A DNA stretch of 64,000 nucleotides, taken from a virus. A program made the translations under genes and the position numbers. The stretch is from the IMG/VR virus record IMGVR_UViG_3300050821_001198, positions 1 to 64,000 of that record, one strand, 5' to 3'. Position 1 is the stretch's first letter; each line of letters opens with the position of its first letter. Under the pieces are notes generated by a model. That model had not been told where the DNA came from. It saw nothing but the letters and a program-made list of their open reading frames with translations, and ran no database searches. This document shows, in pieces, positions 5,244-59,937 of the stretch.

Positions 5244-5245
5244 GA

Positions 5246-5614: not shown

Positions 5615-5621
5615 GGCTCGT

Positions 5622-7178: not shown

Positions 7179-7210
7179 GGTGTCTCCGTTCTCAGTTGGT
7201 CGCTGCGCTT

Positions 7211-7240
7211 ATTATAGCGCAGTCTGACGGCGCTTGTCAA
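7211..7240 (-). promoter_or_regulatory. promoter TTGACA-N18-TATAAT
   Basis: Perfect consensus hexamers upstream of the helicase N-half. Confidence 0.85.
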
Positions 7241-7246
7241 GCACCG

Positions 7247-7480
7247 CTAGGACCCGAACTCACAGCTATGAGGGCCTTGATAAAGCTCTTTGAGCTTGTC
7301 GGCGGGGCAATGGAATTGCAGGCAGCCGTCGTATTCGCCGTGGTAGATCGTCTCGGTGTCGTCTGAGCCATGCTCTCCCAGCGCGATCCCGTTGGCCTTG
7401 GCGTACTCGATGAACTCGGCTTCTCGCTCACCCTCGTAGTACAGGTTGCGGCCGTCCGGGTAAAGAGCTTCGAGATCCAT
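7247..7480 (-). CDS. hypothetical acidic protein
   Basis: ORF between the helicase halves; start MDLEAL just after the upstream stop. Confidence 0.6.
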   Translation of the reverse strand: MDLEALYPDGRNLYYEGEREAEFIEYAKANGIALGEHGSDDTETIYHGEYDGCLQFHCPADKLKELYQGPHSCEFGS

Positions 7481-7481
7481 G

Positions 7482-8039
7482 TCAACCCTCACAGTCGAGA
7501 TTGAAGACCCAATCGAGGGCCGTGGCGTCCAGGAAGAGCTTGGCGCGGGTGACCGCCACGTACATGAGCCGGATATCCGTCTCGCTCGGGCCGGTCTCGC
7601 TCTTGGCGGGCTTGAAGTCGCCGTGGATGAGCACGCGGTTCCACTCCAGCCCCTTGGCCTTGTGCGCCGTGATGATCGTCACGTCCGCCTGCTTGTTCCG
7701 CTGCTTCTTGTCAGCCCCGTCGATGCAGTTGGCCATCATCTCCACGATGGCATCGACGCCGTAGTTGTCGGCCAGCCGGACCATGGAGCGAAGCTCTGCG
7801 CCCTCGTCTGTCTGCGAGTACGCCTGCACGTCGGGCCAGTTGTTGAACGCCTGGAGCGCCGGGAACTTCCACGGGGACTCGCCGTTCATCAACATCTCGG
7901 CGGCCTCGCAGAACTTGCGGAGCCCTCCGAATCCACCGGACATGGTGACCTTGACCGTCTTGCCCTGGGCATGCTGCTCGATGGCCTGGGCGATGACTCC
8001 TGCGTTGGTCCGGCAGAGAATGGCGTCGAAGTCGCTCAC
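7482..8039 (-). CDS. UvrD/Rep-like helicase, C-terminal half (motifs IVa, V, VI)
   Basis: DAILCRTNA, TAHKAKGLEW, RLMYVAVTRAK; GTG start after AACGGA. Confidence 0.88.
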   Translation of the reverse strand: MSDFDAILCRTNAGVIAQAIEQHAQGKTVKVTMSGGFGGLRKFCEAAEMLMNGESPWKFPALQAFNNWPDVQAYSQTDEGAELRSMVRLADNYGVDAIVEMMANCIDGADKKQRNKQADVTIITAHKAKGLEWNRVLIHGDFKPAKSETGPSETDIRLMYVAVTRAKLFLDATALDWVFNLDCEG

Positions 8040-9752: not shown

Positions 9753-10180
9753 TACGAACCCCACTTCCCGGCCGTCAGGAGATCTTCGCGCGGCTCGTGA
9801 TCCGGAAAGAAGCTGCGGACGTGCATGACGGCTAGGCTCGTCTCGATAGGTAGCCGACTGTCTGAGTCAATGATCCGGGCGTTCGCCACGCTCCGGTCCT
9901 TACCGTCCGGCGAGTAGCAGTTCTTGAAGTAGCCGTAGACCTGGCTCAGCCATTCCTCGGTCGGCTCCATCTCAGCCGCTGCGTACAGCAGGGCGATCTC
10001 GGCCTTGATCTCGGCGGGCACGTAGTCCTGATCGATGGCATGCAAGAGGCTAAGGCTACTCGCCTCCTTGCCATTGGCATAGCGCTCGACCACATGGTAC
10101 TCACGCTGCGGTGAGCCCGGAGGGTCCAGGAAGCTACTCATGCTCCCGGCGACGATACGGAACTTGTTGGGGCGAGGCAT
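9752..10180 (-). CDS. hypothetical protein
   Basis: GGAGG RBS; TGATG overlap. Confidence 0.65.
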   Translation of the reverse strand: MPRPNKFRIVAGSMSSFLDPPGSPQREYHVVERYANGKEASSLSLLHAIDQDYVPAEIKAEIALLYAAAEMEPTEEWLSQVYGYFKNCYSPDGKDRSVANARIIDSDSRLPIETSLAVMHVRSFFPDHEPREDLLTAGKWGS

Positions 10181-12308: not shown

Positions 12309-12632
12309 TCAAGCGGTGAGCCCGGAGGGTCCAGTAAAGTCAAGCGGTCTGATCCGGTAATCCTCCGGGACCCGGACGTGGTAGTGCTCACAGTACATGA
12401 GAGCTAGGTCGGCCATGACCATCTTCCGCGTCTCGTCGTCGGGGACCAATCTCCGCACGATCCCACTAACCTCGGCGCGGCTAGCGTTCCGGGCCGTCTG
12501 ACACGTTGCCCGTAGGTAATCAAGGGCATAGGTGTACGGGAATCTGGTCGGGATGAATGCCTGCTCCAACGTAGGCTCGTTGTAGTTGAGCGTCGTCAGA
12601 ACATCGTTAGTTGCGGCGGAGCGCCAAATCAT
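12309..12632 (-). CDS. hypothetical protein
   Basis: TRFPYTYA.DYLR pattern. Confidence 0.6.
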   Translation of the reverse strand: MIWRSAATNDVLTTLNYNEPTLEQAFIPTRFPYTYALDYLRATCQTARNASRAEVSGIVRRLVPDDETRKMVMADLALMYCEHYHVRVPEDYRIRPLDFTGPSGLTA

Positions 12633-13482: not shown

Positions 13483-13598
13483 CTACGCCGGATCTACGAT
13501 CTCGAAGTCGCCGCCGTCAATGGGGAACTCGTCCTCGTCGTTGATGCTCTGGCAGTTCGGACAGGCTACAGCGGGCTTAGGTGGGCTCTGGGCGGCCA

Positions 13599-15468: not shown

Positions 15469-16641
15469 CTACTCGTTGACCTTCCAGGACGAGCGCTTGC
15501 TCGGGTCCTCACTGATCAGGGTCCAGGGACCCATCTTGGTGGCGTACTTGACGAAGTTCTGACGCCTCGTCTTGGCCCGAACCTGCATCTTGGTGAATGC
15601 GCCCTTGGTCGGGTTCTTCACCGGCTCGTCTTCCTGCGGTGCCTCGGGCTCGGCAGCCGCGTCCTCGCCGCAGACACACCACTCGGGCGTGTTGCCGCAG
15701 ACGCACTCAACCTCGTCCTCGTCGTACTCGGGTTCCAGCCCGTCCTCATCGACAGGGATATCCTCGTCAATGGGGAACTCGTCCTCGTGCGTACGGACCG
15801 GCGGAGTCACGACGACATCCGGGTTCGTCAGCACCAGCGCGTCCTCGATCTTGCTCGTCACGCCGTCGCGGATGATCTCGTACGAGCACACCCGCATCTT
15901 CTGCGAGTCGCAATCGGTCGGGACCGAGACGACATCGCGGGGGTTGACATGGACTTCCAGCACCGTGCCAGAGCTATACATCCCCCTGGCGAAGCTGAAC
16001 GTGCCGACATGCAGCCCGGTTGAACACGGATTGCTCGGGTCGTGCTGGACGGCGCTACGAGCCATCTCCACGACGGAGCCGACGTTGTTGGGGACAGGAC
16101 CGCTCTCGTGCTCTTCGCCGTCCACGATGGCCGGACCGGAGAAGATGGACTCCCATGAAACGCCCTTCTTGGGAGACGCCTTGACACCCTTGTAGGCGAC
16201 GAACCGGCCGTCATCCGTGATCGCGAAGCTGTACCGGCCCAGCCAGTCGCAAAGCTGATCGCGGCTGTGGGGCTCGGGGTTGGCCAGCACGTTCTCGAAG
16301 AACCGCACGAGCGGACCGAACGGGAGATCGTCCGCCATGAAGCGGAGAATCTGACTGGTCAGCGCGTTGTCAACCTCATCGTGATCGACGTAGACGCGGC
16401 CGTCCTTGACAGAGATCCGGTCACTCAGCGGCTCGAACTTGCGAGCGGCGTCGGCAGCGAGATCAAGAAGCGTCTGGATCTCTTCCAGATCAGCGTTACC
16501 CTCAACCACGACGGCGTTGAAGATTTGCTGCCAGTTGGGATGGTCCTCGCGAATCGGCGGAAGAAACTCCCCACCCGCTACGAGCGTGAGGTTGAGATCG
16601 CCGTCTTCGTCACGGACCAGTGTGTACGTGTAACTGCTCAT
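15469..16641 (-). CDS. rIIB: rIIB-like protein
   Basis: ITDDGRFVAYKGV, VEMARSAV..DP..PCSTGLHVG, VNPRDVVSVP.D...KMRVC; follows rIIA. Confidence 0.88.
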   Translation of the reverse strand: MSSYTYTLVRDEDGDLNLTLVAGGEFLPPIREDHPNWQQIFNAVVVEGNADLEEIQTLLDLAADAARKFEPLSDRISVKDGRVYVDHDEVDNALTSQILRFMADDLPFGPLVRFFENVLANPEPHSRDQLCDWLGRYSFAITDDGRFVAYKGVKASPKKGVSWESIFSGPAIVDGEEHESGPVPNNVGSVVEMARSAVQHDPSNPCSTGLHVGTFSFARGMYSSGTVLEVHVNPRDVVSVPTDCDSQKMRVCSYEIIRDGVTSKIEDALVLTNPDVVVTPPVRTHEDEFPIDEDIPVDEDGLEPEYDEDEVECVCGNTPEWCVCGEDAAAEPEAPQEDEPVKNPTKGAFTKMQVRAKTRRQNFVKYATKMGPWTLISEDPSKRSSWKVNE

Positions 16642-16674
16642 CGTTGGATACCTCGGGTGGGATTCATGGTGGGT

Positions 16675-16704
16675 AGGTTAGCAGAGTGGTGGGCGGCTTG
16701 TCAA
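16675..16704 (-). promoter_or_regulatory. promoter TTGACA-N18-TAACCT overlapping the rIIA stop
   Basis: Read directly. Confidence 0.65.
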
Positions 16705-18758
16705 CAGCCCATGCCGTAGTCCGCGTCAGCGAATCGAGGCGAGGTTGCCTGGTCCGCAGCGTAGACCGCATTGATGTACATGTACTCGTGCTCTCGCGTC
16801 ACGTTGTCGGCGTAGTACCGGCCCGCCTGCACTAGCGGGTAACGATCAAGCGGGTTGACCCACTCGATGTCCCCGATCAGATTACGGCGTGCATAGTGGC
16901 CGAACCTGTCAGCCATCGCCTTCAGGCCCTTGATACTGTGGTTGGCGGCCCTGATCGCCGCGACAACGGCCGGATCATGGATCTTCTCGGGCTTGAGACT
17001 CTGAAGCACGCGCCTCGCGCCGTACTCGGAGTCAATGGCCAGCGCCAGCCGGTCCTCGTCCGTAATGCTCTCCTGCCACTCTGTGATGATCTCTCGGCAC
17101 TCGGGGGCGGCCTGCTGAGCATGAGGGAAGAGCCGCAGGAACTTGTCCCGCCGATTTGCCCACAACTCAATGAAGTAGAAACCGTCGTCGGCGTACCTGC
17201 GAGACAGGATGTCTCGCTCGGTCTTCGTGGAGCGATTCTTCTGGTACTCGACCCAGAAGATCGGTACCTCGGAATCGAAGTCCTCGGCAAGCATGAGGCT
17301 CGTATCGCTCTGGTCTCCAAGGATAGTCGTAACCTCGTACTCGCCAGCCGAGACGACGGTCTTACCGTCTGCGCCGACGCGAACGGGACGGCCAGCCACC
17401 GGGAGCTTGATCGCTTTGATGTCGGCCCACTCAAGAACGTGACTGTCATCGATCCACGTCTGATCGGGCATCTTGTCCACCAGCACGAAATGGTTGCACT
17501 CCGTCCGGTCTGTGAGCCCGGAAGCGATCTCTGCCTCGCGGCGATCCTCCAGCCACTTCATGAGCTTCTTCTTAGTGGTCGCGGTAAAGCGAGCCTGGTC
17601 CCAGCCCCGGACGAAGTATGTCTTAGGCAGGTAGGTGATATCAAGCGTGGTGATCAACTCGTGCGTGTTATAGTTCTGCCCGTAATCCTTCTCTGAGGAC
17701 GTGATCGCACCCTGTGCCGGGAGAGCCAGAGTAGCCGGGAAGTCCTTACCCCGATAGGTGTAGACAGCGCTCTGGTTACCCTTCATGCCGAACACCTTGC
17801 GGAGTCGGAGCAGGGTGGAAATGGCCTCGCGGGGAGTGCTCGCCTGCTGAATCTCGCGGTCGATGGCCTTGTCCCGCTCCGCCTTGTAGGCGTCTGCGAT
17901 GGCGGCTAGCGCGTCCTTTGTCTTGCGCGTGTAGCGCAGTCCCTCTCGGGCCGGTGTGAACTCCACAGTGCCGATGGGGACGAAGGCGAGAATGCCCTGC
18001 TCTTCACCGAGACCGTGATCGATGTACTGACGCTCAACGGGGTAGGCGACATTGCCCATGACCACGAGACTGTTCGTCTTCTCGCGGTAGCGGTCGGCTG
18101 CGATGACGTAGATCTCATCGGAGACCTTCATGCTGTAGGTAAATCGACGCGGCTCAGCACCGTTCAGCAGGACCGATCCCTCGGGCCAATACTGGAAGAG
18201 GTTGATCGCCTTGGCCTCCATCTGGTTGCTGCCACGGGCCGGGATGGTGACTTCCACGCCTGAAGGCTCGTCGGTCTCTTCGTTCGAGATGATGGTCATT
18301 GTTGCCGCGCCATCCTCGTCGCGAGAGACAGCCACCAAGATCTTGCGCCCGTCCTTGACAGACGAGAGCGTGAACTGATTGGTGTAGGCCAGTCCGGACT
18401 TGCAGCCCAGCCCCAACATGCCCTGAAAGTCATTCGAGCCGCGCTTGGTGGACGCTCCGTACTTGGAGTAGACATCCACAATGTCCTGCCGACTCAGACC
18501 GTTCCCGTAGTCCTTGACCCGCAGGTACGGGGACAGGAGAGACGGCGTGGTGACCTCAATGGGCCGCGACTCGCCCGCCTCGACATGGGCGTCCAGAGCG
18601 TTTGTGCTGTACTCGCGCACAGCGGCAAGCTCAGAGTCCGTGTACAAGTCGATGTACTGACTCATCAAGTGGATGAGCGAGTCTTCGTCCAGCGTCAGGC
18701 GAATATCGTCGCCGGTCATGGTGCTCTTGACGCTGATGTCGGGTGCGGTGGGAAGCAT
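16701..18758 (-). CDS. rIIA: rIIA-like protein (N-terminal GHKL ATPase)
   Basis: AVREYSTNALDAH, DYGNGLS, YGASTK, GMLGLGCKS; AGAGGA RBS before MLPTAP. Confidence 0.88.
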   Translation of the reverse strand: MLPTAPDISVKSTMTGDDIRLTLDEDSLIHLMSQYIDLYTDSELAAVREYSTNALDAHVEAGESRPIEVTTPSLLSPYLRVKDYGNGLSRQDIVDVYSKYGASTKRGSNDFQGMLGLGCKSGLAYTNQFTLSSVKDGRKILVAVSRDEDGAATMTIISNEETDEPSGVEVTIPARGSNQMEAKAINLFQYWPEGSVLLNGAEPRRFTYSMKVSDEIYVIAADRYREKTNSLVVMGNVAYPVERQYIDHGLGEEQGILAFVPIGTVEFTPAREGLRYTRKTKDALAAIADAYKAERDKAIDREIQQASTPREAISTLLRLRKVFGMKGNQSAVYTYRGKDFPATLALPAQGAITSSEKDYGQNYNTHELITTLDITYLPKTYFVRGWDQARFTATTKKKLMKWLEDRREAEIASGLTDRTECNHFVLVDKMPDQTWIDDSHVLEWADIKAIKLPVAGRPVRVGADGKTVVSAGEYEVTTILGDQSDTSLMLAEDFDSEVPIFWVEYQKNRSTKTERDILSRRYADDGFYFIELWANRRDKFLRLFPHAQQAAPECREIITEWQESITDEDRLALAIDSEYGARRVLQSLKPEKIHDPAVVAAIRAANHSIKGLKAMADRFGHYARRNLIGDIEWVNPLDRYPLVQAGRYYADNVTREHEYMYINAVYAADQATSPRFADADYGMGC

Positions 18759-18800
18759 TAGTTCCTCTCTGTAAGGACGACTTCGAGAACAGTGGTTCAA

Positions 18801-28857: not shown

Positions 28858-28885
<28 letters not shown>
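28196..28885 (-). CDS. Thr/Ser/Gly-rich minor tail or virion protein
   Basis: Beta-rich composition, between fibre genes; start uncertain. Confidence 0.65.
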
Positions 28886-31163
<2,278 letters not shown>

Positions 31164-31167
<4 letters not shown>

Positions 31168-31693: not shown

Positions 31694-34600
31694 CTACTTA
31701 TATACCCGTCTCGGCCCGGTCTGTCCGGGTGGTAGTTGCTGCGAGGGCCGAACCTGGCCCGGATCAAGGTAGCCAATGGCGAATCGTGCCTCGCCCGGAC
31801 CGTTGTCGTCCATGGAGAACATGACTTCGGTCCACCCTGTCATCTCGTCCTGCGCCTGTACCTCGCCCGTGCGTGGGGAGCCGTCAGGACGCCTAGCCGT
31901 GACGAGAACATACTGCCCTGCGCCACCCTGCTCCTGCATGTACTCGTCTTCCATCAACTGGACGATCTGTCCATTCTGGTACTGTGCCGCCCACACGAAC
32001 TTAGAGTATGTGCCGGGACTCTGCACGGGGTTGAACGGGCTCGTGGGCTTGGCGCCCGGTACCGAGACCGCCCACGGAGGGGATGGCTGACCGCCATCTG
32101 TGGTGCCCGGTCCCTGCCACTGCTCCCATAGCTGCATCTGCTGGCCGGGGAACGGCGGGATGACGCCCTGGGGCTGTGCTCGCTGCTGCGGCTGAGCCTG
32201 CTGTGCCGGTGGCATCCCCGGAAGCGGCTGCTGACCCTGATCGGCCGGGAACATGTCCCCGTTAGGCATGAACGTACGTGGGCCGCTGGGAGCCTCTCTG
32301 ACGCCAATCGGCGCTGGGGCGGGTGCTGGGCCGCCTTTCGGCGCTCCTGGCCCCGGAGGGCCTCCTGGCTGCCCTGGGAGCCCGGGTGGACCGCCTGGGG
32401 CTGGAGCCGGTTGCCCAGAGGGTCCCTGTTGCTCGTCATCGTCGTCTACAGGGGCTGAGAGGCTCTTCCAGTATAGCGCGAGAACGTGAGAGCACGGACG
32501 CTGCTCGTACTTCTTCCACTTGCGAGTGCGATCAAATGAGAACTGAGCCCATGGGCACTGGCAGTTGTGAACATTCACCCCATAGACACGGAATGAGTGA
32601 TCCTCTTCGACCTCCATGTCAAACACGGGGCCGTCGTAATCCTCGAAGGTAACGCTCTCGATCTTATACCAAGACTTGCCATCGCGGACGAACCGAGGAT
32701 TGCAGCGAGCGCCGGTCGCCCACCGCACTCGGTAAATCCGTCGCCAGTTCTTGACGAATCCATTACCACTGTTCTCGTCATTCCATGTAAGCGAGGTAGC
32801 ATGACCGAGACGATCAAGAATAAGGCGAAGCTGATGTGCCATCGACCCACTTGTTGTGATGATAGAGGTTCGATTGCCGTCTACATGGCCGTCGCCCGCG
32901 ACATAGGCATCGATAAAAGCCCTCTGGACGGCCAACGGGGCTCGAAGTAGGGAAGGATGAAGTTGCTTCAAATGAGACCCGGTTCCTACCGCCTCTGTCA
33001 CAAGGGCTCGTAGACCCCCGTCCGATACTCGGAAGTCTGTCGTGTCCATACGATCCGTTCCGGGCCATGTATTCATGCGAATGGTCCCCGGCGTCCCGAA
33101 CTTACGTTCGATGATCTCAGATAGCTTCTTGGCGATGGGTCGCTCGTCCCGATGCATACTAAAACCGATCCGATTCTTTGTTGCCTTGATCACGAACCCT
33201 TCAGCCGCATACCATCCCAAGACGGTCCCCATATCCTCATCGATAGTGACGCCAGCAATCACGCAAGTCTCTTCCTCCTGAATCGGAGTGGATGACAGAT
33301 AGCCACCCGCTTGAAGCTTGTTTGCCTGCTCCCACCCGAACCTCGGGTTTAGCGGCCCCTCCCCAAGCTTGATCTTGCCGCGCCAACCAACACAGTCTTG
33401 CAGGTAGTAATCGTCGTTGGCCGACCAGAACTGGTGGTCCTCGGTGCAGACAATAGGCTCATCCACCCCCTGAAGCTTGATTGTCGCCAGCCGCCCTCGG
33501 TAGGGCTTTGACCAATGAGTAAGAACAGCCCGCGAGTTACCCTCATGAGTGAGAACGTGGTCGCCAACACCGATATCCTTGATTGCACGTCGAGTCCCGT
33601 CTGCCATTGTGACAGGGGCATCGGGGAGGAAACAATGCCAGTTGGTGATCACCCGTGACTCCGGGTCCTGGCGGCCGATCTCTACCTCGTACTGACCGTG
33701 GTCGCCCTGCACGGTGCCAACGATGTTCGTGGTGCCGTTGCGGAGTAGGATGACCTGATTACCCTGGATGAGCCGCTTGGCCTTCTCCATGATGTCGTTC
33801 CAGTCTGCCGTCTTGATAGCGCTCTCCCGCCGTTGAACGGCTATGCGCCTAATCCGTTCTGGTGGGATTGGCTCAACTACCCGCCATCCTGAACTCATCA
33901 GCGAAGTGCCAGCCTTACCTCCCGGTAAGAAGTTTTCAGGATCTTCGTATATCGGTCCAGTTGGTTCAACTCGGTAGACATTTGCTTGATCGCCCCCGTA
34001 TAAGCCAGCCTGATCAGGATCAACATGAGCATATGCCATCGTAGGGTGATAGGATTGATTGCGTACCCCTTCGACTTCGCTGAAGTTACCAGGATGTCCT
34101 ATCTCAGAAGCCGGTTGTACGACGTCACCAGGATTGAGTAGAGCATTGGTGCCATGGTAAAAAGGTCCTTCACCCTCATAGGGATAGAAAGGTGATTCAT
34201 CGGTTGGTGGCGGTGTAATACGTCGCATTCCTATCGTTCTGCGACGGGTATTCGGAACGTTTGCGCCAGGGGCATAGTAACTCTCATATGCCCATTGGGA
34301 TGGGTCCATCAACTCTAGGCGATCAGGGGATATCGGCTGAGTCGTCATAGCGGCATCTTCAGGAGGGGATCCCAAGTATGGGTCACCTACAAGAGGTAAA
34401 CCCTCATGACGAACGCGCCACACATCATAGGGGACATGGAAATCAAAGTACTTCATCGCAGCATAATCGTGAGCACTATGTTCATCGCCCCAAAGATAAT
34501 TGCCCTCTGGTGCCTCGATACTCGCATCGGCACCCCGAGCGTGGTCCAAACCATACTGGAGGATGCTATCACGGGAATCAGAGGGCGCAACGTGGTACAT

Positions 34601-35191
34601 CACCTGTGGTGTGCTTGATATTCGGCTCGGATTACATTCTGGGCAACTAGGATTTACCTCAGATGATTCACCTTCATGATATCCCAATTGGTGTGCCAAG
34701 GTTTGCGCTGGTCCTCCGCTAGCCCACGATACATACCGTTGATAATGAGGATGGTCAGGTGGGACTATTTCGGGGCCTGGATGCTGTCCACTTGTCGTGT
34801 CTACGATAGTTCCATCTGGCGCTACATTCCAAGAATGATCGCCGGGGCCAAGTCTTGGACGTACATAGAAACCCGCATCTTGTCTCAGATGCGGCCATTG
34901 ACGTGCTACGGCACTGGCTAGTTCGTAGCACTCTTCCTTGGCTCGATATTTGGCTAATTCATCGCGTGACGGGATCACCTGTGGTGTGCCCGGGTCATAC
35001 TCGCTATCCTCCGTTGGCTCATCCGGCATCTCGGTCTCGGCCAGCTTATACCCATGGTACGCTAGCTCGATCTCCGCGACCTCTCGAAGCGGTCCTCGCG
35101 AGAACACGATCACGCCCTGATCCGTCTTGAGACAGGAAGCGTGCTGAGTGAACCCGATGCAAGGGCGATCTAGGATCTCTTGAAGTTCCAC
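31694..35191 (-). CDS. modular polyprotein: papain-like domain, ART domain, Arr-like ART domain, intein-containing SWIM domain, Pro/Gln linker, C-terminal domain
   Basis: CYELA..GDHSW..IVDTT; MYHVA..SILQYGL..YLW..VWRV..ISPDRL; GPFYHGT..AYA..VYRVEPTG..EDP; WH|CQCP..PCSH. Confidence 0.8.
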   Translation of the reverse strand: MELQEILDRPCIGFTQHASCLKTDQGVIVFSRGPLREVAEIELAYHGYKLAETEMPDEPTEDSEYDPGTPQVIPSRDELAKYRAKEECYELASAVARQWPHLRQDAGFYVRPRLGPGDHSWNVAPDGTIVDTTSGQHPGPEIVPPDHPHYQRYVSWASGGPAQTLAHQLGYHEGESSEVNPSCPECNPSRISSTPQVMYHVAPSDSRDSILQYGLDHARGADASIEAPEGNYLWGDEHSAHDYAAMKYFDFHVPYDVWRVRHEGLPLVGDPYLGSPPEDAAMTTQPISPDRLELMDPSQWAYESYYAPGANVPNTRRRTIGMRRITPPPTDESPFYPYEGEGPFYHGTNALLNPGDVVQPASEIGHPGNFSEVEGVRNQSYHPTMAYAHVDPDQAGLYGGDQANVYRVEPTGPIYEDPENFLPGGKAGTSLMSSGWRVVEPIPPERIRRIAVQRRESAIKTADWNDIMEKAKRLIQGNQVILLRNGTTNIVGTVQGDHGQYEVEIGRQDPESRVITNWHCFLPDAPVTMADGTRRAIKDIGVGDHVLTHEGNSRAVLTHWSKPYRGRLATIKLQGVDEPIVCTEDHQFWSANDDYYLQDCVGWRGKIKLGEGPLNPRFGWEQANKLQAGGYLSSTPIQEEETCVIAGVTIDEDMGTVLGWYAAEGFVIKATKNRIGFSMHRDERPIAKKLSEIIERKFGTPGTIRMNTWPGTDRMDTTDFRVSDGGLRALVTEAVGTGSHLKQLHPSLLRAPLAVQRAFIDAYVAGDGHVDGNRTSIITTSGSMAHQLRLILDRLGHATSLTWNDENSGNGFVKNWRRIYRVRWATGARCNPRFVRDGKSWYKIESVTFEDYDGPVFDMEVEEDHSFRVYGVNVHNCQCPWAQFSFDRTRKWKKYEQRPCSHVLALYWKSLSAPVDDDDEQQGPSGQPAPAPGGPPGLPGQPGGPPGPGAPKGGPAPAPAPIGVREAPSGPRTFMPNGDMFPADQGQQPLPGMPPAQQAQPQQRAQPQGVIPPFPGQQMQLWEQWQGPGTTDGGQPSPPWAVSVPGAKPTSPFNPVQSPGTYSKFVWAAQYQNGQIVQLMEDEYMQEQGGAGQYVLVTARRPDGSPRTGEVQAQDEMTGWTEVMFSMDDNGPGEARFAIGYLDPGQVRPSQQLPPGQTGPRRVYK
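32564..33634 (-). mobile_element. intein (357 aa) with LAGLIDADG homing endonuclease
   Basis: Starts CFLPDAPVTMADG; CTEDHQF block B; LGWYAAEG and FIDAYVAGDG; ends VHN followed by Cys+1. Confidence 0.93.
34599..34989. repeat. perfect 16-bp direct repeat ATCACCTGTGGTGTGC at 34599-34614 and 34974-34989
   Basis: Read directly; spacing 375 bp (in frame), both copies encode TPQV. Confidence 0.9.
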
Positions 35192-35209: not shown

Positions 35210-36346
35210 CTAGTAGATCCGAACGCCCAACTGCTTGAGCTTCTCGCCATACCCACGATTCATGATCATCTTGTACGCCAGGTTGCTCGCAGAGAAGTCA
35301 CCCTTACCGGAGGTTTGATCTCTCTGCCGCCGCCGATGGATGACCCCGTAATACTGAACAGCCTTCTCGGGCTCGAACTTGAGTAGGGTGTTCATCTTGT
35401 CGCAGACCTCAAGCGCGTACGTGTAGTCGGCGTGACGCTCTCGTTCAACATCGTGGCTCATACTGTGATCGGGCGGGACGATCCACTTACGGGTCTCAAG
35501 GTCGTACGCGGAACGCAGCCCCGGCTTGTACAGGTCGTGGACCGTCAGCGTCTTCGAGACCACGAACGCCTGGATGTCGTGAGCAGTGCCCGGTAGGAGG
35601 ATACCGTCGAACTCCTTGACCATGACACCGATCATCTCGCCACGGGACCACTCGGGGAGCCCTGAGACGAAAAGGCTGATGTCGCAGTCTGAGTGTGCGC
35701 TGTACTGGTACGTAGTAAGAGAGCCTGTGAGGACGAGCTTGAGCCACCTATTCGGACCCTCGTAGCCGTGCCGCTCCAGCGCTCCGTAGATCGTCTTGTG
35801 AATCCAGTCGTTGAGCTTGGGCTTCAACTGTGGGGTGGCGGTATTCGGGGCGATCCATACGGCCGGATCGAGATAGGGCTGGATTGGATCGAGGATATTG
35901 GCGTCCTTGAAGTGCGGTGCCAACACTAACTCCACCACGTTGTGAAGGTTCTTCTCTAGCAATTCGGCCTGACCTTCGTCTAGATCAAGCTCGTGCGGGA
36001 GCTTGACATCTACCTTCACGTCCTTGGGAGTGATCTCCGTGTCGTACACAGCGTCGGGTGTTTGACACTCAGTCTCAAGGGCGGAAACCTTGACCTTATG
36101 CCAACCCGGTGCCTTCACGTCCCACTCATAGTCCTCGCTGCCCACGTCGATCTTGTAGTTCGGGTACTCCTTCTCGGCCGCCTTCTGGACCTTGCTGAAC
36201 AGTTCGGTCGGATCAGCGTCACCTAGGACGATCTGGACCTTCTTCTCGGCATCATTGACGTAGATCTCTCCGTAGTCAATCGACTCGCCCACCTGATGCT
36301 TGAGGCTATCCATGCCAGTCCGCCAATCTCGTATCTCCGCCGCCAT
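35210..36346 (-). CDS. protein with C-terminal Pol-beta-type nucleotidyltransferase domain
   Basis: LVLTGSLTTYQYSAHSDCDISL (GS...DxD), YDL....W. Confidence 0.75.
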   Translation of the reverse strand: MAAEIRDWRTGMDSLKHQVGESIDYGEIYVNDAEKKVQIVLGDADPTELFSKVQKAAEKEYPNYKIDVGSEDYEWDVKAPGWHKVKVSALETECQTPDAVYDTEITPKDVKVDVKLPHELDLDEGQAELLEKNLHNVVELVLAPHFKDANILDPIQPYLDPAVWIAPNTATPQLKPKLNDWIHKTIYGALERHGYEGPNRWLKLVLTGSLTTYQYSAHSDCDISLFVSGLPEWSRGEMIGVMVKEFDGILLPGTAHDIQAFVVSKTLTVHDLYKPGLRSAYDLETRKWIVPPDHSMSHDVERERHADYTYALEVCDKMNTLLKFEPEKAVQYYGVIHRRRQRDQTSGKGDFSASNLAYKMIMNRGYGEKLKQLGVRIY

Positions 36347-38270
36347 CGTCTCGAAGATGCAAGCTCTTGACCTCTAGGGTCGGGAACTTGGCGTACCAGA
36401 GCTTGAGGAAGTAGTTGGCCGTCCACGGCATGTTGGTGAAGGTGTGGATTATGACCTTGCCGCTCGGGTCATAGACACCATCCACGATCCCTCCGGGGGT
36501 GAACTGCCCAGGGATGTCGGAGACGGTGGTACCCGGCTGACCCGTTGTGATCGTATCATCCTTGATGTCGTAGATGAACGGAAGCGGTCCTGCAAGGCTC
36601 TCGCCCGGAGTCGTCCTGTTGGTAAGCGCTACCTTGACCAGAAGAGCGTTTATATCTTCAGGTCGTCCGGCGACTCCGGACACCCGGTCATCCCCCGTGA
36701 GCCGTGCAATAGCCGATATACCAGCATGTCGCCAAGCCACGAGGTAATGATCCGATTCTGCGCTACTGGTCCTTTCCGAAATTCCTCGTAGGTGCGAGCC
36801 GAGGTTTCCGGCTTGAGCAGCCGTGACGTGGGCAACGTAAGGAAACTGATCCTCGAAGCGGTTAGACGGTGAAGGGTTGTCGGGGTCCCGTAGCTCGGGC
36901 ATGTGGGAGTCGTCCGGAAGAGGCGCTCCGTCCACGGCGGGATTGAGACTTTCTTCACGGTGTTGATGTTCGAGGTATTCGCTATAGGTCGGGTATACTG
37001 CGCCGCAGTGTTCACACTTGAATGCTCCACCATTGGTGGAACCAGATTCATTCTCGTAACGCGCCGGATACTGGATGTCATCTGGCTGCGTAGGATTCGG
37101 GTCGGCGTTGTTGTGAAGGTCAAGATGCTCAAGGGGTTTCACCACGTTATCGTTGTAGGCTAGTAGAGTGTGTCCCTGATCCTCGCACCACTCGCTGAGA
37201 CAGGCGAACACGCGCTTGTCATCCTCGAATGCGACGTGACGCATGGACAAAGGGTAATCGGGCTGAGTCAAAACTTGTACACGGGTATAACCGCTCGTGG
37301 TTGTCAGCGCCCCGGTAATGCGGGAATCTTCAACCAGCGAAAGAGCACCATACCGATGGACAATCACCAACTCGCCCGCATTCGTATACGCAAAGTAGGT
37401 CCGACTGCTGGACTTGCCGAGGAACGCTTCATCGTCTATAGGCGTCCCGTCAGCCTGGGCAAGCCCTCCCCAACTCCAGCCAGCGTGCTTCCCGTAGTCC
37501 TTGAGGACTCGCATGAGAGCGTTGGGGCTAATGTTCCCGGTTGCATGCCAGAATGCTACCCCATCTGACACATCTACTGTCCCTGCTGACATTGGTCCCA
37601 TGTGATTGGGCTCCGCTCCCGTGTGGCCTAGGAGGTCTTCGTGGCTGTGGAACGGTGACACTTCGAGGGACCCGTTAGCGTAGACGTACTTGTACTCGCC
37701 ATTGGCTGTGTCGGTGAGATCGTCGTGCATATAACGCTGGTCCATGTCGTCAATATTCTGTGGCGTCTCGCCCGGATAGGCGTCCCCAATCATGTCGGCA
37801 AACTTATGGAGCGCATCAGGGTTGTCGAAGAGCCGGTTAGCACGCTGAGCAAATCGCGCGGCCCGTTCATTGTTGAGCGCGGGCACAATCTCAATGCCAG
37901 CGTAGAACGGGTGAGAAGACTTCTTGAAGACGACAGGACCCGGCCGGTGGCTACGGTGTCGAGGCTGTAGCTCCAGTCCGGTGTCGTCGGGGTGAATCTT
38001 CATCCCGTTGAGAGATGGGTGTGCGGGCTTCTGAGCGAAGAGATCGCCGGTCAGGTCTAGGACGTACTTCCCGTCCTTACTGAGCCACACGTAGTGGCCG
38101 TCCTTGCGTGCGACGTGTCCACCGAGGCGATTGGCCAGCCAAGAAGCTGTGACGTAGCATTGCCCCGCCGACCGCTGCGGGTGACCCTTGAACGCCGGGT
38201 GACGTGTGTCATCGTCCCATGCACGCTCTGCGGCCTCTCGTAGAAGGTGAAGCTCGCCCTGGCTGAGCAT
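36306..38270 (-). CDS. modular protein with N-terminal papain-like (YunG-like) Cys-His-Asp domain and internal Zn finger
   Basis: SAGQCYVTA...GHYVW...VLDLTGD; CEHC...H. Confidence 0.7.
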   Translation of the reverse strand: MLSQGELHLLREAAERAWDDDTRHPAFKGHPQRSAGQCYVTASWLANRLGGHVARKDGHYVWLSKDGKYVLDLTGDLFAQKPAHPSLNGMKIHPDDTGLELQPRHRSHRPGPVVFKKSSHPFYAGIEIVPALNNERAARFAQRANRLFDNPDALHKFADMIGDAYPGETPQNIDDMDQRYMHDDLTDTANGEYKYVYANGSLEVSPFHSHEDLLGHTGAEPNHMGPMSAGTVDVSDGVAFWHATGNISPNALMRVLKDYGKHAGWSWGGLAQADGTPIDDEAFLGKSSSRTYFAYTNAGELVIVHRYGALSLVEDSRITGALTTTSGYTRVQVLTQPDYPLSMRHVAFEDDKRVFACLSEWCEDQGHTLLAYNDNVVKPLEHLDLHNNADPNPTQPDDIQYPARYENESGSTNGGAFKCEHCGAVYPTYSEYLEHQHREESLNPAVDGAPLPDDSHMPELRDPDNPSPSNRFEDQFPYVAHVTAAQAGNLGSHLRGISERTSSAESDHYLVAWRHAGISAIARLTGDDRVSGVAGRPEDINALLVKVALTNRTTPGESLAGPLPFIYDIKDDTITTGQPGTTVSDIPGQFTPGGIVDGVYDPSGKVIIHTFTNMPWTANYFLKLWYAKFPTLEVKSLHLRDDGGGDTRLADWHG

Positions 38271-44198: not shown

Positions 44199-45493
44199 TA
44201 GGAGTAACGCTGATCCCGAAAGTACAGGACATCGTTGACGTACGTTGCAAGCTCTAGCTTGAACTTGCCATCGGGCCACACGGTAGCCGTGCCAAAGCCC
44301 TGCTGCCAGTCGGGGTTGACTGTGTAGCCTAGCCCATCAGACGTACACATACAGCCAGTCTCCATCGCCGCGATCACGCCGGGGTTACCGTCGATGTCAT
44401 GGATCGTCTTGTGAACGATTGACTGGCGGTGAACATGGCCGATCACGATTGAGTGACCTAGCGTCTCAAGAGTGGCTAGTGCTGACGCACCGGCACCCTT
44501 GCGAACAAGCCAACCGTGGCGAGCGGCGAGATTCTGACACACCTTGTGCGCCGCCTGCTCGTATTCGCCATCCGGCGTGATGTACTTGATCCCTAGTTCG
44601 TCCAGACGGAGTAGGTAAGGAATCGACATGACTGGTAGCTCTTCCTTCTGACCGGGCACTAGGGCTCGGCGGACACCGTAGATCCGTGGCATCTTGGCGA
44701 GGATGGCATCACGCATTCGTGCATCATGGTTACCTTCAAGCATGACCCACTCGGTGGACTCACTGGCTTGCACATACTCGCGCTTGACCATGTAGGTCTC
44801 ATCGAGACAGACCTGAACGGCCTCGTCCCACTCGGGGTTGTCGGGATACTTCGACAACTGCGAGAAGTCACCAGAGTCACCCATCATGACACCCTCGTCG
44901 GGCTTGTTGTACTCAAGCCACTCGCAGAAGAGTCCGTGGAGTCTCCGGTCGTGCTTGGGGGCCTGCTGGTCACCGACGAACACGATCCTGCGGATGTTGT
45001 TGTCGCCGTCGTATCTGACTGCTAGCGGCCGTCTCCGGATGTAGTCACCGGGGACGCGGGCCGGGATGATGAGTGTCAACGGAGCCTTCCGCTTGTAGTT
45101 CACCGTCAACTGCTTCATCAGCACGATGCGGTTGTCACCACTGGCCTTGTCTGAGGTCATGGCGTTCCACTCATTGACCTTGAGATTCACTACCTCCCAA
45201 TCGTCGGGCTCTAGGCCGCGCTCACGGAGAAGATCGTCGGGAGTGTTGACGGTTGTACCGGGCTGGGTGATGATCTCCGCGTCATCGCCCTCTAGCTTGA
45301 AACTTGCCTTGACGGCTGGACTCTTCCGAATCCCCCACCTACGCACTGCGCGGCGAACTGAATGGCGGGTAGTTTGCAGATCGTGACAATCTTCTAGGAT
45401 GTCTGCAATCTGCTGGTATGAGCGCCCTTCGTTCACGCAGTTCGTGATCAGATCACGGTACGCTTCGATGGGGCTCGGATTATTTAGGCTCAA
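44198..45493 (-). CDS. calcineurin-like metallophosphoesterase with N-terminal HTH
   Basis: GDQQ, GDSGD, GNHD, HG, GHVHR. Confidence 0.85.
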   Translation of the reverse strand: MSLNNPSPIEAYRDLITNCVNEGRSYQQIADILEDCHDLQTTRHSVRRAVRRWGIRKSPAVKASFKLEGDDAEIITQPGTTVNTPDDLLRERGLEPDDWEVVNLKVNEWNAMTSDKASGDNRIVLMKQLTVNYKRKAPLTLIIPARVPGDYIRRRPLAVRYDGDNNIRRIVFVGDQQAPKHDRRLHGLFCEWLEYNKPDEGVMMGDSGDFSQLSKYPDNPEWDEAVQVCLDETYMVKREYVQASESTEWVMLEGNHDARMRDAILAKMPRIYGVRRALVPGQKEELPVMSIPYLLRLDELGIKYITPDGEYEQAAHKVCQNLAARHGWLVRKGAGASALATLETLGHSIVIGHVHRQSIVHKTIHDIDGNPGVIAAMETGCMCTSDGLGYTVNPDWQQGFGTATVWPDGKFKLELATYVNDVLYFRDQRYS

Positions 45494-48060
45494 TCCTCAT
45501 CCAGTAGTCGATATCTTCGTTTCTTACTAGCCTGCGGAAGCCGGATAACTGTGTCATCCACTCTTGCTTCTTTTGTCCGCACACCTTCAGATTCGCTTTC
45601 ATCGTCGTGGACAGTATCAGTTTTACCCTGGTGTTTCAAGTCTTCTGGGTTCTCGTCTGGCGGGTGACCGTAAGTGAACCATGCCGAGTCACTCGGGTCT
45701 GTGGTTTCATACGAACCGGAGGCAAGCTCATAGGGACTGAAATTCTGACTCCAAGCGTTACTGCAATCGGTCTTATACTGGCGGTGACCCTTATTACCGT
45801 CTAGATGAAGTGTCAAAGGGTGATTCTCGCCGCGATAGTGGTCGGGCTCGGGAATGCCAGCCACTTGATCAATGGGCGGGAAGTTGACAATCTTGCCGTA
45901 CTGCCCGGGATCAATGTTGTACGGGTAGCGAGGGCCACTGTCCTCTAGCTCGAAGTCACCATCGGGGCCATCCTCGACTGAGCCTCCGTAGAAGAGTCCC
46001 GGCCGCCGCTCGTTACTGATGTCGGGTACGGTCCCTGCTGGACCCGGCTGCATCCCTCCACGGGGCGGCGCTCCGCCTCCGGGGGTTGCTCCACCGATGC
46101 CGCCCGGACCAAGCTGTCCTGGGCCACCCGGGGCTCCCATAGCGCCACCGATCCCGCCGGGAGGTCCGGGCATCACGATTGGGCTTCCAGGGCCGCCGTG
46201 GGGTCCCTGACCGCCTCCTGGGGGCATGGGCGGCTGTGTCGGTCCGCCGCCACCCGTTGGCGGGGGCGGAGTGCCACCGTTGCGGCTCGCCTCGACCTCT
46301 GCCTTGAGATCCGGTGGGATCGGGTACCCTGCCGCAGCGAGAGCGTTGTAGGTCTTGACCTTTGCGGCCTGCTGGGCGATGGTCTTCTTCTCCAGGTCTT
46401 CGTTGTACTTGATGACCATTTCGTCAAAATCGATGTTCACACCGATCATCAGATTCTCGTCCGGGATCGGGACGCCCTGCTGACGTAGGGCCTGGAAGAA
46501 CTGACGCTCGGTGGCCTCATCACGGAGGTCCAGCACAGAGAAGTCCAATTCAACGTCAATGAGCTTGTGTCGCTCTTCGACATGCTTGTTACCATCTTCA
46601 TCCTCAACCACAACCTCTTCCATGATCGGCACACGAGTCTCGCCGCGTGTCTCGTAGTCATAGTGACCTTGAGCCTCAGCGACAACCATCGCCCGCTCCT
46701 GGAAGTGCCGCTTCAAGTGGCCTTGGTAGGTGCGAAGAACCTGGTTCATGAACTCAGCTTGCAGTGCGCTCGATGCGTACGGCTGCGAGTTGGCACCGGC
46801 CGAGAGCAGTGACGGGTTGATCCCGAAAATCTGCATCAGTCGCCGCTCGATGCGGTCGAAGTCGTCACCGAGACGTGGCATCTGCTCGCGGCCAAAGACG
46901 TTCGTGATGTCGAGACCCATGTGGTGAACTAAGAGCCGGAAATCGGACGAGAGCGCCACATCCATATCGTCACGGAGAGCGTCAAGCTCGTCGGGAGACG
47001 GGAACCACGGACCCTGACCATCGCCCAGATCGGTAATCCCCATCTTGGCTAGGATCAGGGGAGAGTACAGGCGCTCTGCGATAGCGTCCTGTGAAGCCAG
47101 TAGCTTCTCTTCGTGGATGAGCGTGCGTAGTCCGCGCAGCAACATCGGAGTGCCATGGTCGTCCCACGACGTAAACTTGTTAGCTACCTGCTTGAGCAAC
47201 ACGTCGCTGATCGGGATGTGTTCGTTCTTGCGTAGGTACGGGATCAACTCTGGGAAGTTCATCTCCAGCATCCGGTACTCGCGAGCAGGCTGCTTTGTCT
47301 GTGCTAGCTTCTTGAGGTAATCCGGCGGAACGATCTTCAGCGCACGAGAGCCCAAGAGCGGGAAGTTCTCGATGATGATGTCCTCTGGGTTCAATAGCTC
47401 TTCGCGCTCCCAGATACCTAGTGTGTCATCAAACGACGCGAGCGGGAATGCCTCACCGACTAGGAAGTGCTCGCGACCGAGGCCGACGAAGAACTCCGGG
47501 TAGTTGAGGTCATTGAGGAACAGTTCCTCGTAGAACTTGGTGGCCCGCTTGTCCTTGCACCGGATCTCCATGCCCGACAGAGGGAAGCGGGTGAAGATGT
47601 CGATGAGAATGGGAACTAGGTAGTGAGTCGCGTAGTAGAGCCGCAGCCACTTGTGGAGCTTGTGCCGGTGGCCTTCGTCTGCCATGTTCCAGGGAAGTCC
47701 GGTGATGTCCCAATACTCCAGGGGGTCGTAGAACCGAGGCATAGCCGCGAAGACATCTCCGCCGCCTCCCGTGCCGATGTTGGCGTTCTTCCGCATGCTC
47801 GACGCGGTACGCTGGCGCTTCATCTCTCGGATGATGCGGGTGTTCTGCTGGATGTCGTCGGCCGCACTCTCTGAGTTAGCGGACGTGTCAAGGAATCCGT
47901 AGCGCCTAGACGATCCGGGCTGAGCACCCGCCATCTTGTGGATTGACAGAGCCTCTACCTGGGCTCTAGCGGCGTTGCGAGGTAGTGACACGCCACGAGC
48001 ACGGAGGTTGTCTACCATCGCGTTCAGTTGCTTCGTGTTACGTGCGCTCTGACCTGACAT
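45490..48060 (-). CDS. portal protein with long Gly/Pro-rich linker and C-terminal extension
   Basis: Near terminase; RLYY..H.LV...ID....FP, GEAF, LNP, GTP.L.R, AIAERL..PL; large-myovirus portal pattern. Confidence 0.78.
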   Translation of the reverse strand: MSGQSARNTKQLNAMVDNLRARGVSLPRNAARAQVEALSIHKMAGAQPGSSRRYGFLDTSANSESAADDIQQNTRIIREMKRQRTASSMRKNANIGTGGGGDVFAAMPRFYDPLEYWDITGLPWNMADEGHRHKLHKWLRLYYATHYLVPILIDIFTRFPLSGMEIRCKDKRATKFYEELFLNDLNYPEFFVGLGREHFLVGEAFPLASFDDTLGIWEREELLNPEDIIIENFPLLGSRALKIVPPDYLKKLAQTKQPAREYRMLEMNFPELIPYLRKNEHIPISDVLLKQVANKFTSWDDHGTPMLLRGLRTLIHEEKLLASQDAIAERLYSPLILAKMGITDLGDGQGPWFPSPDELDALRDDMDVALSSDFRLLVHHMGLDITNVFGREQMPRLGDDFDRIERRLMQIFGINPSLLSAGANSQPYASSALQAEFMNQVLRTYQGHLKRHFQERAMVVAEAQGHYDYETRGETRVPIMEEVVVEDEDGNKHVEERHKLIDVELDFSVLDLRDEATERQFFQALRQQGVPIPDENLMIGVNIDFDEMVIKYNEDLEKKTIAQQAAKVKTYNALAAAGYPIPPDLKAEVEASRNGGTPPPPTGGGGPTQPPMPPGGGQGPHGGPGSPIVMPGPPGGIGGAMGAPGGPGQLGPGGIGGATPGGGAPPRGGMQPGPAGTVPDISNERRPGLFYGGSVEDGPDGDFELEDSGPRYPYNIDPGQYGKIVNFPPIDQVAGIPEPDHYRGENHPLTLHLDGNKGHRQYKTDCSNAWSQNFSPYELASGSYETTDPSDSAWFTYGHPPDENPEDLKHQGKTDTVHDDESESEGVRTKEARVDDTVIRLPQASKKRRYRLLDED

Positions 48061-57533: not shown

Positions 57534-58946
57534 CTACAACGCTAGGGCCGCATTGTTACGTACCTGATCGAATGTCTGGTACCTGGAGAGCGATCCGTTC
57601 TCGAAGACCTGTTCGAGCAGATTGTGCCCTCCAACCTCGGCCTCCCGCACGGTTCGGACTTCCCCGTTGTTGCTATAAAGAGCCAGCCTGCCTCGCTTGC
57701 TCTTCTTGGTCGAATCCACCGGGTCCTTCCAGACATCGTGCCACTCCCCGTTTCGTCTCTGCGACGATGACTTGAAAGCGTTTCGTTGTGTGTCTCGGTC
57801 GTGCTTCTGGTGCAGCCCTCCGCCCATTCCGAGAGCAGCTATGTTCTCGGGTGCCCACCCGGCATCCACCACCGCCTGCATGATCTCGAAGACAGCCTCA
57901 GGAGTCGGGATACCGTCTCCCCAGAGAGTCCGGATCTGACTCGGGAGCAACTTGAGCCCCTTAGAGTTGTGCTGGATGTAGCCGGTCAGGTTGGCTCCCA
58001 TGCGGTTCAGGAGCGCCACCATCAGTGCGGGCGGCGTCGGATGCTGCTTGGTTGTCGAATCCGGCCGCACCACGAACGGCATGGTGCGGTTCATGATCGT
58101 CGGGAGCCATGGTCCGGTGACCTGATCCACGAAGTCGTAGATGTTGTAAGAGTCGCCCACTTCCGAGAGAATTGAGTCCGGATTGTCCTTCATGATCCTA
58201 AGGGCTTGTTCGTACTCGCCATCTCGACCCAGGGCCGTCATCGTGCTGTGCTCGGTGGCCGCCACAGAGTACGCCAGAGTGTCGAGGTTAGCGTTGTAGT
58301 AGTCCAGAGCCAACTCCATGGCGACAGGAGTATCACTGCCCGCGAAGTTGATTAGGTGACCGGCACCGCCGACTGCGGCCGATTCGTCAGAGGACGCGCC
58401 TCTGTAACCAAAGTCGTGAAGCATGTACGGGAGCCCATCCAGACCGTCTCCGTAGGTCTTCAAGAAACCTGCTAGGCCCTCCTTGATTGTCCGACTGATC
58501 GTCGCAACGTTGGACGAAGACCAGACGTGTGTCAGAAGCGACTCAAGAGCGTTGGTGAGCCAAAAGCAGTCGGGGTCCGTGTTCTCCACGGTCATCATGA
58601 CGTTGGAGATCGGCACAGGAGTCCCCTCGGGGACGGCACTGATACGTAGCGGAAGTCTGCCTCCGTGCTTGTCGATGATGTGCTGCCACCCTTCCTCATG
58701 GAAGAGGGGACGGCCAAAGTGCGCCAGCGCTAGCTTCTTGGCGTGTGCCAACTTCTCCGGTGTCACAACCTGACCCTCTAGGTATTCCTGAAGGAGATAC
58801 TGGAGTCCAAAGAAGACCGTGTATGGGTACTTGGCTCCGTCACGGCTCTCGAAGTAACTGTAGACGCCGGTCGTGTTCGTCGGGTACTGCTTCCAGTGTG
58901 TCAGCTTGTAGCTGTCAGTCTTGGTGATGATGTTCTTGGTTCTCAT
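57534..58946 (-). CDS. nadV: nicotinamide phosphoribosyltransferase (NAMPT)
   Basis: TDSYKLTH, LHDFGYRG, HLINF.GSD, A.EHS, DSY, VVRPDS, WGDG, GMGGGL. Confidence 0.93.
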   Translation of the reverse strand: MRTKNIITKTDSYKLTHWKQYPTNTTGVYSYFESRDGAKYPYTVFFGLQYLLQEYLEGQVVTPEKLAHAKKLALAHFGRPLFHEEGWQHIIDKHGGRLPLRISAVPEGTPVPISNVMMTVENTDPDCFWLTNALESLLTHVWSSSNVATISRTIKEGLAGFLKTYGDGLDGLPYMLHDFGYRGASSDESAAVGGAGHLINFAGSDTPVAMELALDYYNANLDTLAYSVAATEHSTMTALGRDGEYEQALRIMKDNPDSILSEVGDSYNIYDFVDQVTGPWLPTIMNRTMPFVVRPDSTTKQHPTPPALMVALLNRMGANLTGYIQHNSKGLKLLPSQIRTLWGDGIPTPEAVFEIMQAVVDAGWAPENIAALGMGGGLHQKHDRDTQRNAFKSSSQRRNGEWHDVWKDPVDSTKKSKRGRLALYSNNGEVRTVREAEVGGHNLLEQVFENGSLSRYQTFDQVRNNAALAL

Positions 58947-58967
58947 GGTATCTGTAATCCTTGAGCG

Positions 58968-59870: not shown

Positions 59871-59937
59871 GTGTTCCTCACGGTTGTATCTGTAAACCCT
59901 CGTAGGGGAACTGCTATTCAGTTGGTACTTACGTGAG

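Follow-up and report, generated by a model that had tools for sequence, protein, structure and literature searches.

A short exact repeat on the edges of a cargo module, probably left by in-frame insertion into a phage polyvalent protein gene

How does a very large phage protein take up a further domain without losing its reading frame? This question is raised by a gene in the soil-phage virus record IMGVR_UViG_3300050821_001198 (128,248 nucleotides, nt), the first 64,000 nt of which were analysed here and are referred to as the window. The gene (31694-35191, minus strand), delimited from the list of open reading frames (ORFs) and its translation, has a GTG start and encodes a polyvalent phage protein of 1165 amino acids (aa), P0001, whose ortholog P0007 begins in the same way. 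A native N-terminal leader is followed in this protein by three cargo modules and a conserved body. The first of these modules, a Cys-His-Asp domain, lies between two copies of an exact 16-nt direct repeat, which a first-pass annotation of the sequence had taken for the footprint of an in-frame cassette acquisition. The evidence set out below makes a duplication of the gene's own linker during such an insertion the probable origin of the repeat.

The 16-mer, ATCACCTGTGGTGTGC, occurs at 34599-34614 and 34974-34989 (plus-strand coordinates), with no mismatch between the copies. In the sense of the gene it reads GC ACA CCA CAG GTG AT. Copy 1, the gene-upstream one (34974-34989, minus strand), covers aa 68-73 as (G)TPQV(I) at the end of the native leader or linker, and copy 2, the gene-downstream one (34599-34614, minus strand), covers aa 193-198 as (S)TPQV(M) and directly precedes an ADP-ribosyltransferase (ART)-like domain. 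The copies are spaced by 375 nt, that is 125 codons in frame, and enclose an insert of 359 nt. A pattern scan and translation confirmed the repeat, its coordinates, its spacing and the shared TPQV as first annotated, as well as the statement that a deletion between the copies would preserve the frame (375 = 3 x 125). The wider scan of the genome that had been proposed found only these two copies in the 128,248-nt record: there is no third one in the window at up to two mismatches, nor in the whole record at up to one, and 100 shuffles of the window gave a mean of 0.02 matches to the 16-mer, with two matches in 0/100. Analogous repeats at other module junctions, which had also been proposed, did not appear elsewhere in the window when the junction windows were compared; the remaining 14 junction-window pairs within the gene share just 5-7 nt. 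A second, imperfect repeat beside the copies (34613-34627 and 34941-34955, 13/15 identical) is out of frame and in reverse order and was set aside as probably due to chance. Longer exact direct repeats are found elsewhere, namely one of 24 nt (13515-13538 and 15765-15788 of the window, about 2.2 kb apart), one of 22 nt (10108-10129 and 12313-12334 of the window, also about 2.2 kb apart) and one of 20 nt outside the window (record positions 116080-116099 and 116269-116288, spacing 189 nt).

Alignments with homologs, which define module edges without recourse to the repeat, place both copies on such edges. Six of the eight first-round homologs with the Cys-His-Asp module (aa 73-193; 34613-34975, minus strand) start their match at aa 73 and the other two at aa 71 and 69. 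In an exhaustive search with 122 matches, the module also occurs in stand-alone proteins, where its start corresponds to aa 72-73, as in P0022 (residues 2-117). Thus, the end of copy 1 coincides exactly with the module start. Stand-alone ART-like domains (P0067, P0081, P0089 and P0098) begin with the Met that corresponds to aa 198 here, and copy 2 ends one residue ahead of this original start codon of the next domain.

A repeated tetrapeptide would by itself be unremarkable in a protein of 1165 residues. The 16-nt match, however, arose at the DNA level and not from the peptide alone, because the identity crosses into codons of unlike residues, GGC/AGC (Gly/Ser) on one side and ATC/ATG (Ile/Met) on the other, and because the probability of 16/16 identical nucleotides, given both peptides and independent codon choice under regional codon usage, is only 2.9e-4 to 6.6e-4.

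The composition of the gene changes at the first copy. The G+C content at third codon positions (GC3) is 0.69 in the leader, 0.355 in the Cys-His-Asp module, 0.474 in the ART-like domain, 0.365 in a following Arr-like domain and 0.81 at the start of the body, and the maximum-likelihood change points fall at codon 74 (61-94) and codon 453 (447-458). These delimit a low-GC3 cargo block of three modules (aa 73-453; 33833-34975, minus strand). The earlier observation that the gene-upstream copy stands where a low-GC block begins is therefore correct (codon 74), with the amendment that the block runs past the second copy to about codon 453. At the ortholog locus L008, the GC3 of the cargo domain equals that of its surroundings; since the block in the window differs from its surroundings, the cargo of the window gene looks recently imported.

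There are also hints as to which copy is the original. The nucleotide homology of the leader to L008 reaches the 'CACAGGT' inside copy 1 and then breaks down. The codons CAG and GTG have frequencies of 0.86 and 0.31 in native genes and of 0.33 and 0.08 in the cargo block, and those in copy 2 are of the native and not of the cargo-block type; CCA points in the opposite direction, being commoner in the cargo block than in native genes. A hand calculation from the codon frequencies gave a likelihood ratio of about 6 in favour of native-type codons in the repeat. As homology enters copy 1 and the codons are of native type, the word would be native, which weakly suggests that it came from the recipient gene, with a second copy made beyond the module, the layout that a target duplication leaves.

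From these observations we infer a gain of the module, and the repeat is best explained as a target duplication that probably accompanied an in-frame insertion of cargo by illegitimate or short-homology recombination rather than by transposition. One complete Cys-His-Asp (YunG-like) module, the 359-nt insert, would have entered the cargo slot that lies after the N-terminal leader and before the KptA-like ART domain, through two illegitimate or short-homology joints. If the target positions of these joints overlapped by 16 nt, the overlap, a piece of the gene's own linker (...GTPQV), would have been duplicated on the far side of the insert. Only an in-frame product would have survived, and no transposase would have been involved. 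The two copies would now serve as substrate for the in-frame loss of the module. A pool of such cassettes exists, since both the Cys-His-Asp and the ART-like module occur as stand-alone proteins of 99-145 aa. The timing of the event and the lineage in which it took place are less constrained; for example, the duplication could have arisen in a donor lineage.

One parallel comes from another host protein. P0135 (214 aa) matches P0080 (338 aa) over P0080 residues 1-88 (53%) and 199-337 (73%) and is without the 110-aa KptA-like module that forms an in-frame insert in P0080. Residues 74-88 of P0135 align both to residues 74-88 and to residues 199-213 of P0080. At the peptide level, P0080 thus resembles a filled site and P0135 its empty counterpart, the duplicated target measuring about 15 aa.

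A second parallel is exact at the nucleotide level. An IMG/VR contig, L022, encodes a 1055-aa polyvalent protein (4539-7703, plus strand) with GNAT, ParB_N, ART-like, glutaredoxin and further modules, in which RLAMP stands at five module junctions (aa 274, 405, 531, 686 and 827). Each of these has an identical 14-nt core, which occurs exactly five times in the 53,058-nt record; pairwise, 16-21 nt are identical and the flanks diverge at once. The probability of the same codons given the peptide is 1.5e-4. Genes neighbouring that of the L022 protein bear 13-nt pieces of the same linker words. The L022 17-mer was considered as a site shared among phages and rejected, as five other contigs hold one copy each in unrelated contexts. 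A different kind of repetition was seen at L007 (7699-12372, plus strand), where a very long ORF beside a body homolog carries the motif LDEF(L/F)GT...FKFG at least five times with, unlike L022, only partial nucleotide identity.

Flanking words are enriched in the family as a whole. Profiles of the two modules, built from search matches, found 70 and 119 domains in 128 proteins, and a word of at least 4 aa common to the 20 aa preceding and the 60 aa following each module was looked for, with cross-protein pairs as control. Such words were shared at 7/80 modules against 116/6200 controls (1.87%; p 7.7e-4), and at 6/65 modules when the window gene and tandem same-family neighbours were left out (p 1.4e-3). 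Examples are two copies of APTRVMA around the ART-like module of P0076 and of KSHGRR around that of P0080, and, at Cys-His-Asp modules, two copies of NASV in P0006 and ATRE/REEPE in P0023. Searches for an empty-site homolog of P0076 gave none among the stored proteins; the DNA of P0006 was not found in the genome collection, which gave one unrelated weak match, and P0023 was without a match in IMG/VR. Across the analog cases the duplications measure 12, 16, 21 and about 45 nt, all but the 16 being inferred from peptides. This variation in length fits repair or recombination better than a dedicated enzyme. The first-pass reading of an insertion footprint is accordingly plausible in view of the P0080/P0135 pair, the exact junction repeats of L022 and the enrichment of flanking words, while a target-site duplication of the transposon type found no support.

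Several observations weigh against an insertion of this one module at this one site. The low-GC3 block takes in all three cargo modules and ends only at the conserved start of the body; as the bracketed module, with a GC3 of 0.355, equals the Arr-like domain (0.365) in this respect, composition cannot single it out as the latest arrival. The same ART-like domain directly follows the Cys-His-Asp module in 7/16 other proteins with both. Because of this adjacency and the shared foreign composition of the three modules, the Cys-His-Asp and ART-like pair, or the entire cargo block, may have arrived together; joint import of the pair is not what a simple insertion of one module would lead one to expect. 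In a relative, the module ends in KISSAAPQ where the present one has RISSTPQ, so that the module itself could have supplied part of copy 2. The enrichment of flanking words is not significant when it is restricted to heterologous module pairs with the window gene excluded (1/20, p 0.098), and the analog cases apart from L022 are at the peptide level only. The nearest ortholog, P0007 at L008, shares only 45-51% identity and differs in its cargo domain. No empty-site or single-copy allele of the window gene was found in the collections searched, in which the closest relatives are 45-60% identical. Nor was a deletion joint seen in two soil runs, for which assembled contigs only were available, so that the result is uninformative on deletion variants; the first run is the probable source, and the second consists of low-depth fragments with no cover over 34417-35019.

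Other searches for relatives were similarly sparse. Megablast of the gene against GenBank phages gave no matches, and tblastn with aa 1-520 matched aa 440-520 alone, in three records of Mycobacterium phages. In IMG/VR, the whole protein retrieved intein-like matches only, the ART-like domain and the module alignment one weak locus each, and the back-translated pattern of PQVMYHVAP none. An ancestral 'leader-ART' architecture, considered on the basis of the P0007 cargo, was not claimable, the hhalign probability of this cargo against the ART-like profile being 0.2.

Among the other explanations, the junction words could be functional linkers, for example protease sites (perhaps for the Cys-His-Asp module itself), that were homogenised by intragenic recombination or gene conversion, in which case the repeat would be silent on insertion. 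We consider this unlikely, though the main alternative. The motif [KR]x[AS][AS] stands within 12 aa before 37/126 module starts against 2.3% of random windows in the same proteins, and R[TL]AMP is kept across proteins whose modules share just 35-68% identity. In some proteins three to six copies of one word are seen, as in P0011 (TPPA, three copies), P0096 (RTAMP, three copies) and L022 (RLAMP, five copies). In three further body proteins with cargo (P0002, P0004 and P0018) the Cys-His-Asp module is likewise the first one, and it has been proposed, in the part of the polyvalent-protein study covered here, that peptidase domains of polyvalent proteins free other domains by autoproteolysis (PMC5512222). 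There is, however, no consensus between proteins (TPQV, NASV, ATRE, APTRVMA and KSHGRR), which argues against the site of one protease, and in the window gene the word is present at only two of four cargo junctions. Moreover, selection on the peptide alone does not yield 16/16 identical nucleotides, and P0080 and P0135 differ by a module that is genuinely present in one and missing from the other, with duplication of its target. The functional-linker and insertion readings are not exclusive, as a linker conserved for its function would also favour recombination. In the relatives P0002 to P0131, the motif [KR]x[AS][AS] often has a Trp a few residues earlier and could be either a site of processing or a linker of a general kind.

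Chance, i.e. a tetrapeptide repeated in two similar linkers and written in the same codons by accident, is improbable. The whole record contains 19 exact direct pairs of at least 16 nt: eight of these are more than 1 kb apart (five of them by more than 18 kb, most likely by chance), seven lie in a collagen-repeat gene, and four others, including the TPQV pair, are within 1 kb. In addition, the linkers before modules are alike in make-up, 'PQV' also preceding an ART-like domain in P0009 (twice), P0130 and P0035, and the repeat was selected post hoc out of a very large scan. Yet only about 0.03-0.08 exact 16-nt pairs within 1 kb are expected in the record by a hand estimate (record length x 1000 / 4^16, adjusted for composition), and 0/1897 random pairs of 72-nt windows within the gene share more than 11 nt. 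The low probability of the codon match given above also speaks against chance, as does the fact that neither copy lies more than one residue from a module edge defined without reference to the repeat. It is very improbable that a transposase, or some other enzyme dedicated to a mobile element, produced a target-site duplication here. Direct repeats do bracket an insert of defined size, but the ends of the insert are without terminal inverted repeats (the best inverted pairs, of 72-75% complementarity, lie inside it), the reading frame of the module fills the entire 359 nt, and 0/28 neighbouring ORFs scanned with Pfam and PHROGs (15.5-63.9 kb) match a transposase or integrase family. The varying duplication length counts against such an enzyme as well. 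No orphan cassettes were found in the 128-kb record (estimated to be 80% complete), which by tblastn is without paralogs of the modules and holds no further 16-mer. Finally, two strains might have been fused at the repeat, the sequence having been assembled from metagenome data at about 8-fold depth. The repeat is shorter than the word lengths usual in assemblers. Such an artefact is extremely unlikely, because two assemblies give the same protein (P0012, from the second assembly, equals P0001 except for the notation of the start residue) and a single 21,197-nt contig of the source run covers the stretch without any difference.

The bracketed module can be assigned with some detail. Among 32 aligned sequences C88, H119, D131 and Q136 are invariant, and the predicted model has a predicted local distance difference test score (pLDDT) of 86.4. 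A wide structure search with VIA-align retrieved TglA (Z 7.0), LapG (Z 6.2), arylamine N-acetyltransferases, SpvD and PeiW; the top matches are nearly all of the transglutaminase/papain-like fold, with moderate scores (Z 7.0 to 5.0) over 74-90 aligned residues, and Foldseek gave no match at E <= 0.001. Pfam YunG (PF24585) matches 12/32 of the aligned relatives (best E 5.2e-5), the window segment itself being without a family match at E <= 0.1. By its Cys-His-Asp triad and its modelled fold, the module is predicted to be a papain/transglutaminase-like cysteine enzyme that may act as a peptidase, transglutaminase, deamidase or acyltransferase. A literature search on 'YunG' returned personal names only.

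The domain that follows copy 2, here called the MYHVAP domain (aa 198-310; 34262-34600, minus strand; model pLDDT 84.2), is predicted to have a KptA/Tpt1-like ART fold. Its best Foldseek match is TkoKptA (9ldi, E 3.5e-4, probability 1.00), followed by Tpt1 entries (RNA 2'-phosphotransferases), with PARPs and toxin ARTs ranking lower. In the alignment His200 is invariant and Arg207 and Ser209 are nearly so. The labels 'papain-like' and 'ART' of the first-pass annotation thus hold at the level of the fold, on the strength of the structure-search matches. The third cargo module (aa 344-440; 33872-34162, minus strand) is a putative Arr-like second ART-type domain, with a Pfam Arr-ms match (E 1.6e-4, 22.2 bits) below the cut-off of 25; positions 26-106 of the profile of the first ART-like domain also match it.

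The N-terminal leader (aa 1-68; 34988-35191, minus strand), native by its GC3, is 51% identical to P0007 residues 1-76 and is common to P0007 only; in a word-based search with this leader the query itself was the sole match. The conserved body, from about aa 446, comprises a SWIM zinc finger, a Pro/Gly/Gln-rich stretch and a C-terminal domain and is split by an intein. Over aa 446-1165 it is 45% identical to P0007 and is also common to P0002, P0004 and many body-only proteins of about 430 aa, and in P0002, P0004, P0007 and P0018 it is joined to other N-terminal cargo. The cargo of relatives includes a CCA-adding enzyme, an Acb1-like phosphoesterase and Fic, NUDIX, Arr-like, GNAT, ParB_N and glutaredoxin domains. 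The LAGLIDADG intein (aa 520-877; 32561-33634, minus strand) lies ahead of the first Cys of the SWIM zinc finger, and the rest of the finger, the Pro/Gly/Gln-rich stretch and the C-terminal domain follow at 31694-32560 (minus strand). It is identified by Pfam LAGLIDADG_3 (39.3 bits, cut-off 22.5), by Intein_splicing and Hint matches below cut-off, and by its ends, Cys520 and His-Asn877 followed by Cys878; the orthologs P0002 and P0004 are without it. An intein interrupts this SWIM zinc finger both in the window gene and in its ortholog at L008 (5134-8154), but at different sites, before the first Cys of the CxC pair in the window protein and before the Cys of CxH in P0007.

The polyvalent gene is located between those for the portal (45490-48060) and for a collagen-like tail fibre (28858-31167), and its product may be packaged in the virion and delivered into the host. 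Upstream of it are genes for a 378-aa protein without a family match (35210-36346, minus strand) and for a 654-aa protein with a weakly YunG-like N-terminus (36306-38270, minus strand; E 0.001). At the equivalent position of these two genes, L008 has a single polyvalent gene for 1365 aa, which encodes a CCA-adding enzyme together with an ART-like domain and is internally duplicated at a spacing of 1902 nt. Elsewhere in the window, a nicotinamide phosphoribosyltransferase and a cytidyltransferase-NUDIX protein (57534-59966, minus strand) look like a nicotinamide adenine dinucleotide (NAD) salvage pair, which shares the phage with the NAD-using ART-type cargo, and rIIA-like and rIIB-like genes are present at 15469-18800 (minus strand; PHROG E 1.9e-85 and 2e-54).

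Phage mosaicism results from random or microhomology joints followed by selection, which leaves breakpoints at gene and domain borders. The joint proposed for the window gene differs in being intragenic and in frame, with copies of the target flanking one domain. Known processes include domain accretion in polyvalent proteins and, in polymorphic toxins, an exchange of cassettes guided by the junction. Iyer and colleagues described polyvalent proteins of phages and conjugative elements and inferred repeated 'domain accretion' from modules that also stand alone (Iyer et al., 2017; PMC5512222). As far as that text was covered, the window gene is alike in joining many unrelated enzyme or effector domains (Cys-His-Asp, KptA-like ART, Arr-like and the SWIM body) in one polypeptide, and in having domains that are likewise found alone (99-145 aa) or as body-only proteins (about 430 aa). 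Exact, gene-specific junction repeats and target duplications around single modules are not described in the searched text of PMC5512222, in which 'linker' and 'direct repeat' have no occurrences; the point was not sought in the wider literature. A review of CdiA cassette exchange at the VENN motif and of orphan cdiA-CT modules, as consulted in part, gives recombination at the junction as the proposed route (PMC7662968). Such CdiA/Rhs polymorphic toxins resemble the window gene in having a short conserved junction that marks the in-frame swap point of variable modules, although the CdiA motif is common to the main gene and same-genome orphan cassettes and serves C-terminal replacement (PMC7662968). 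In the window gene, by contrast, the word is gene-specific and without an orphan copy in the 128-kb record, and the module would have been added internally, with duplication of the target. T4 Alt, a head-packaged and injected ADP-ribosyltransferase in the summary given in PMC5512222, is comparable by description as an ART-type enzyme of a phage, presumed to work at the onset of infection, but has a single function and lacks stacked modules.

Domain accretion is the presumed route by which polyvalent proteins grow, and no molecular trace of an in-frame addition was found in the searched text of PMC5512222. Together, the exact repeat on the module edges, the five junction repeats of L022 and the filled and empty pair make a mechanism testable. 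Junction words would also give a practical rule for placing module borders in very large, poorly annotated phage proteins. More speculatively, the polyvalent proteins of this family might be in-frame cassette arrays in which gene-specific, exact junction words flank the modules, with gain accompanied by a duplicated target, loss by recombination between the words, and the words possibly acting as processing sites for the Cys-His-Asp module. This wider proposal is tentative, but, if true, a phage population would carry a shifting payload of counter-defence enzymes.

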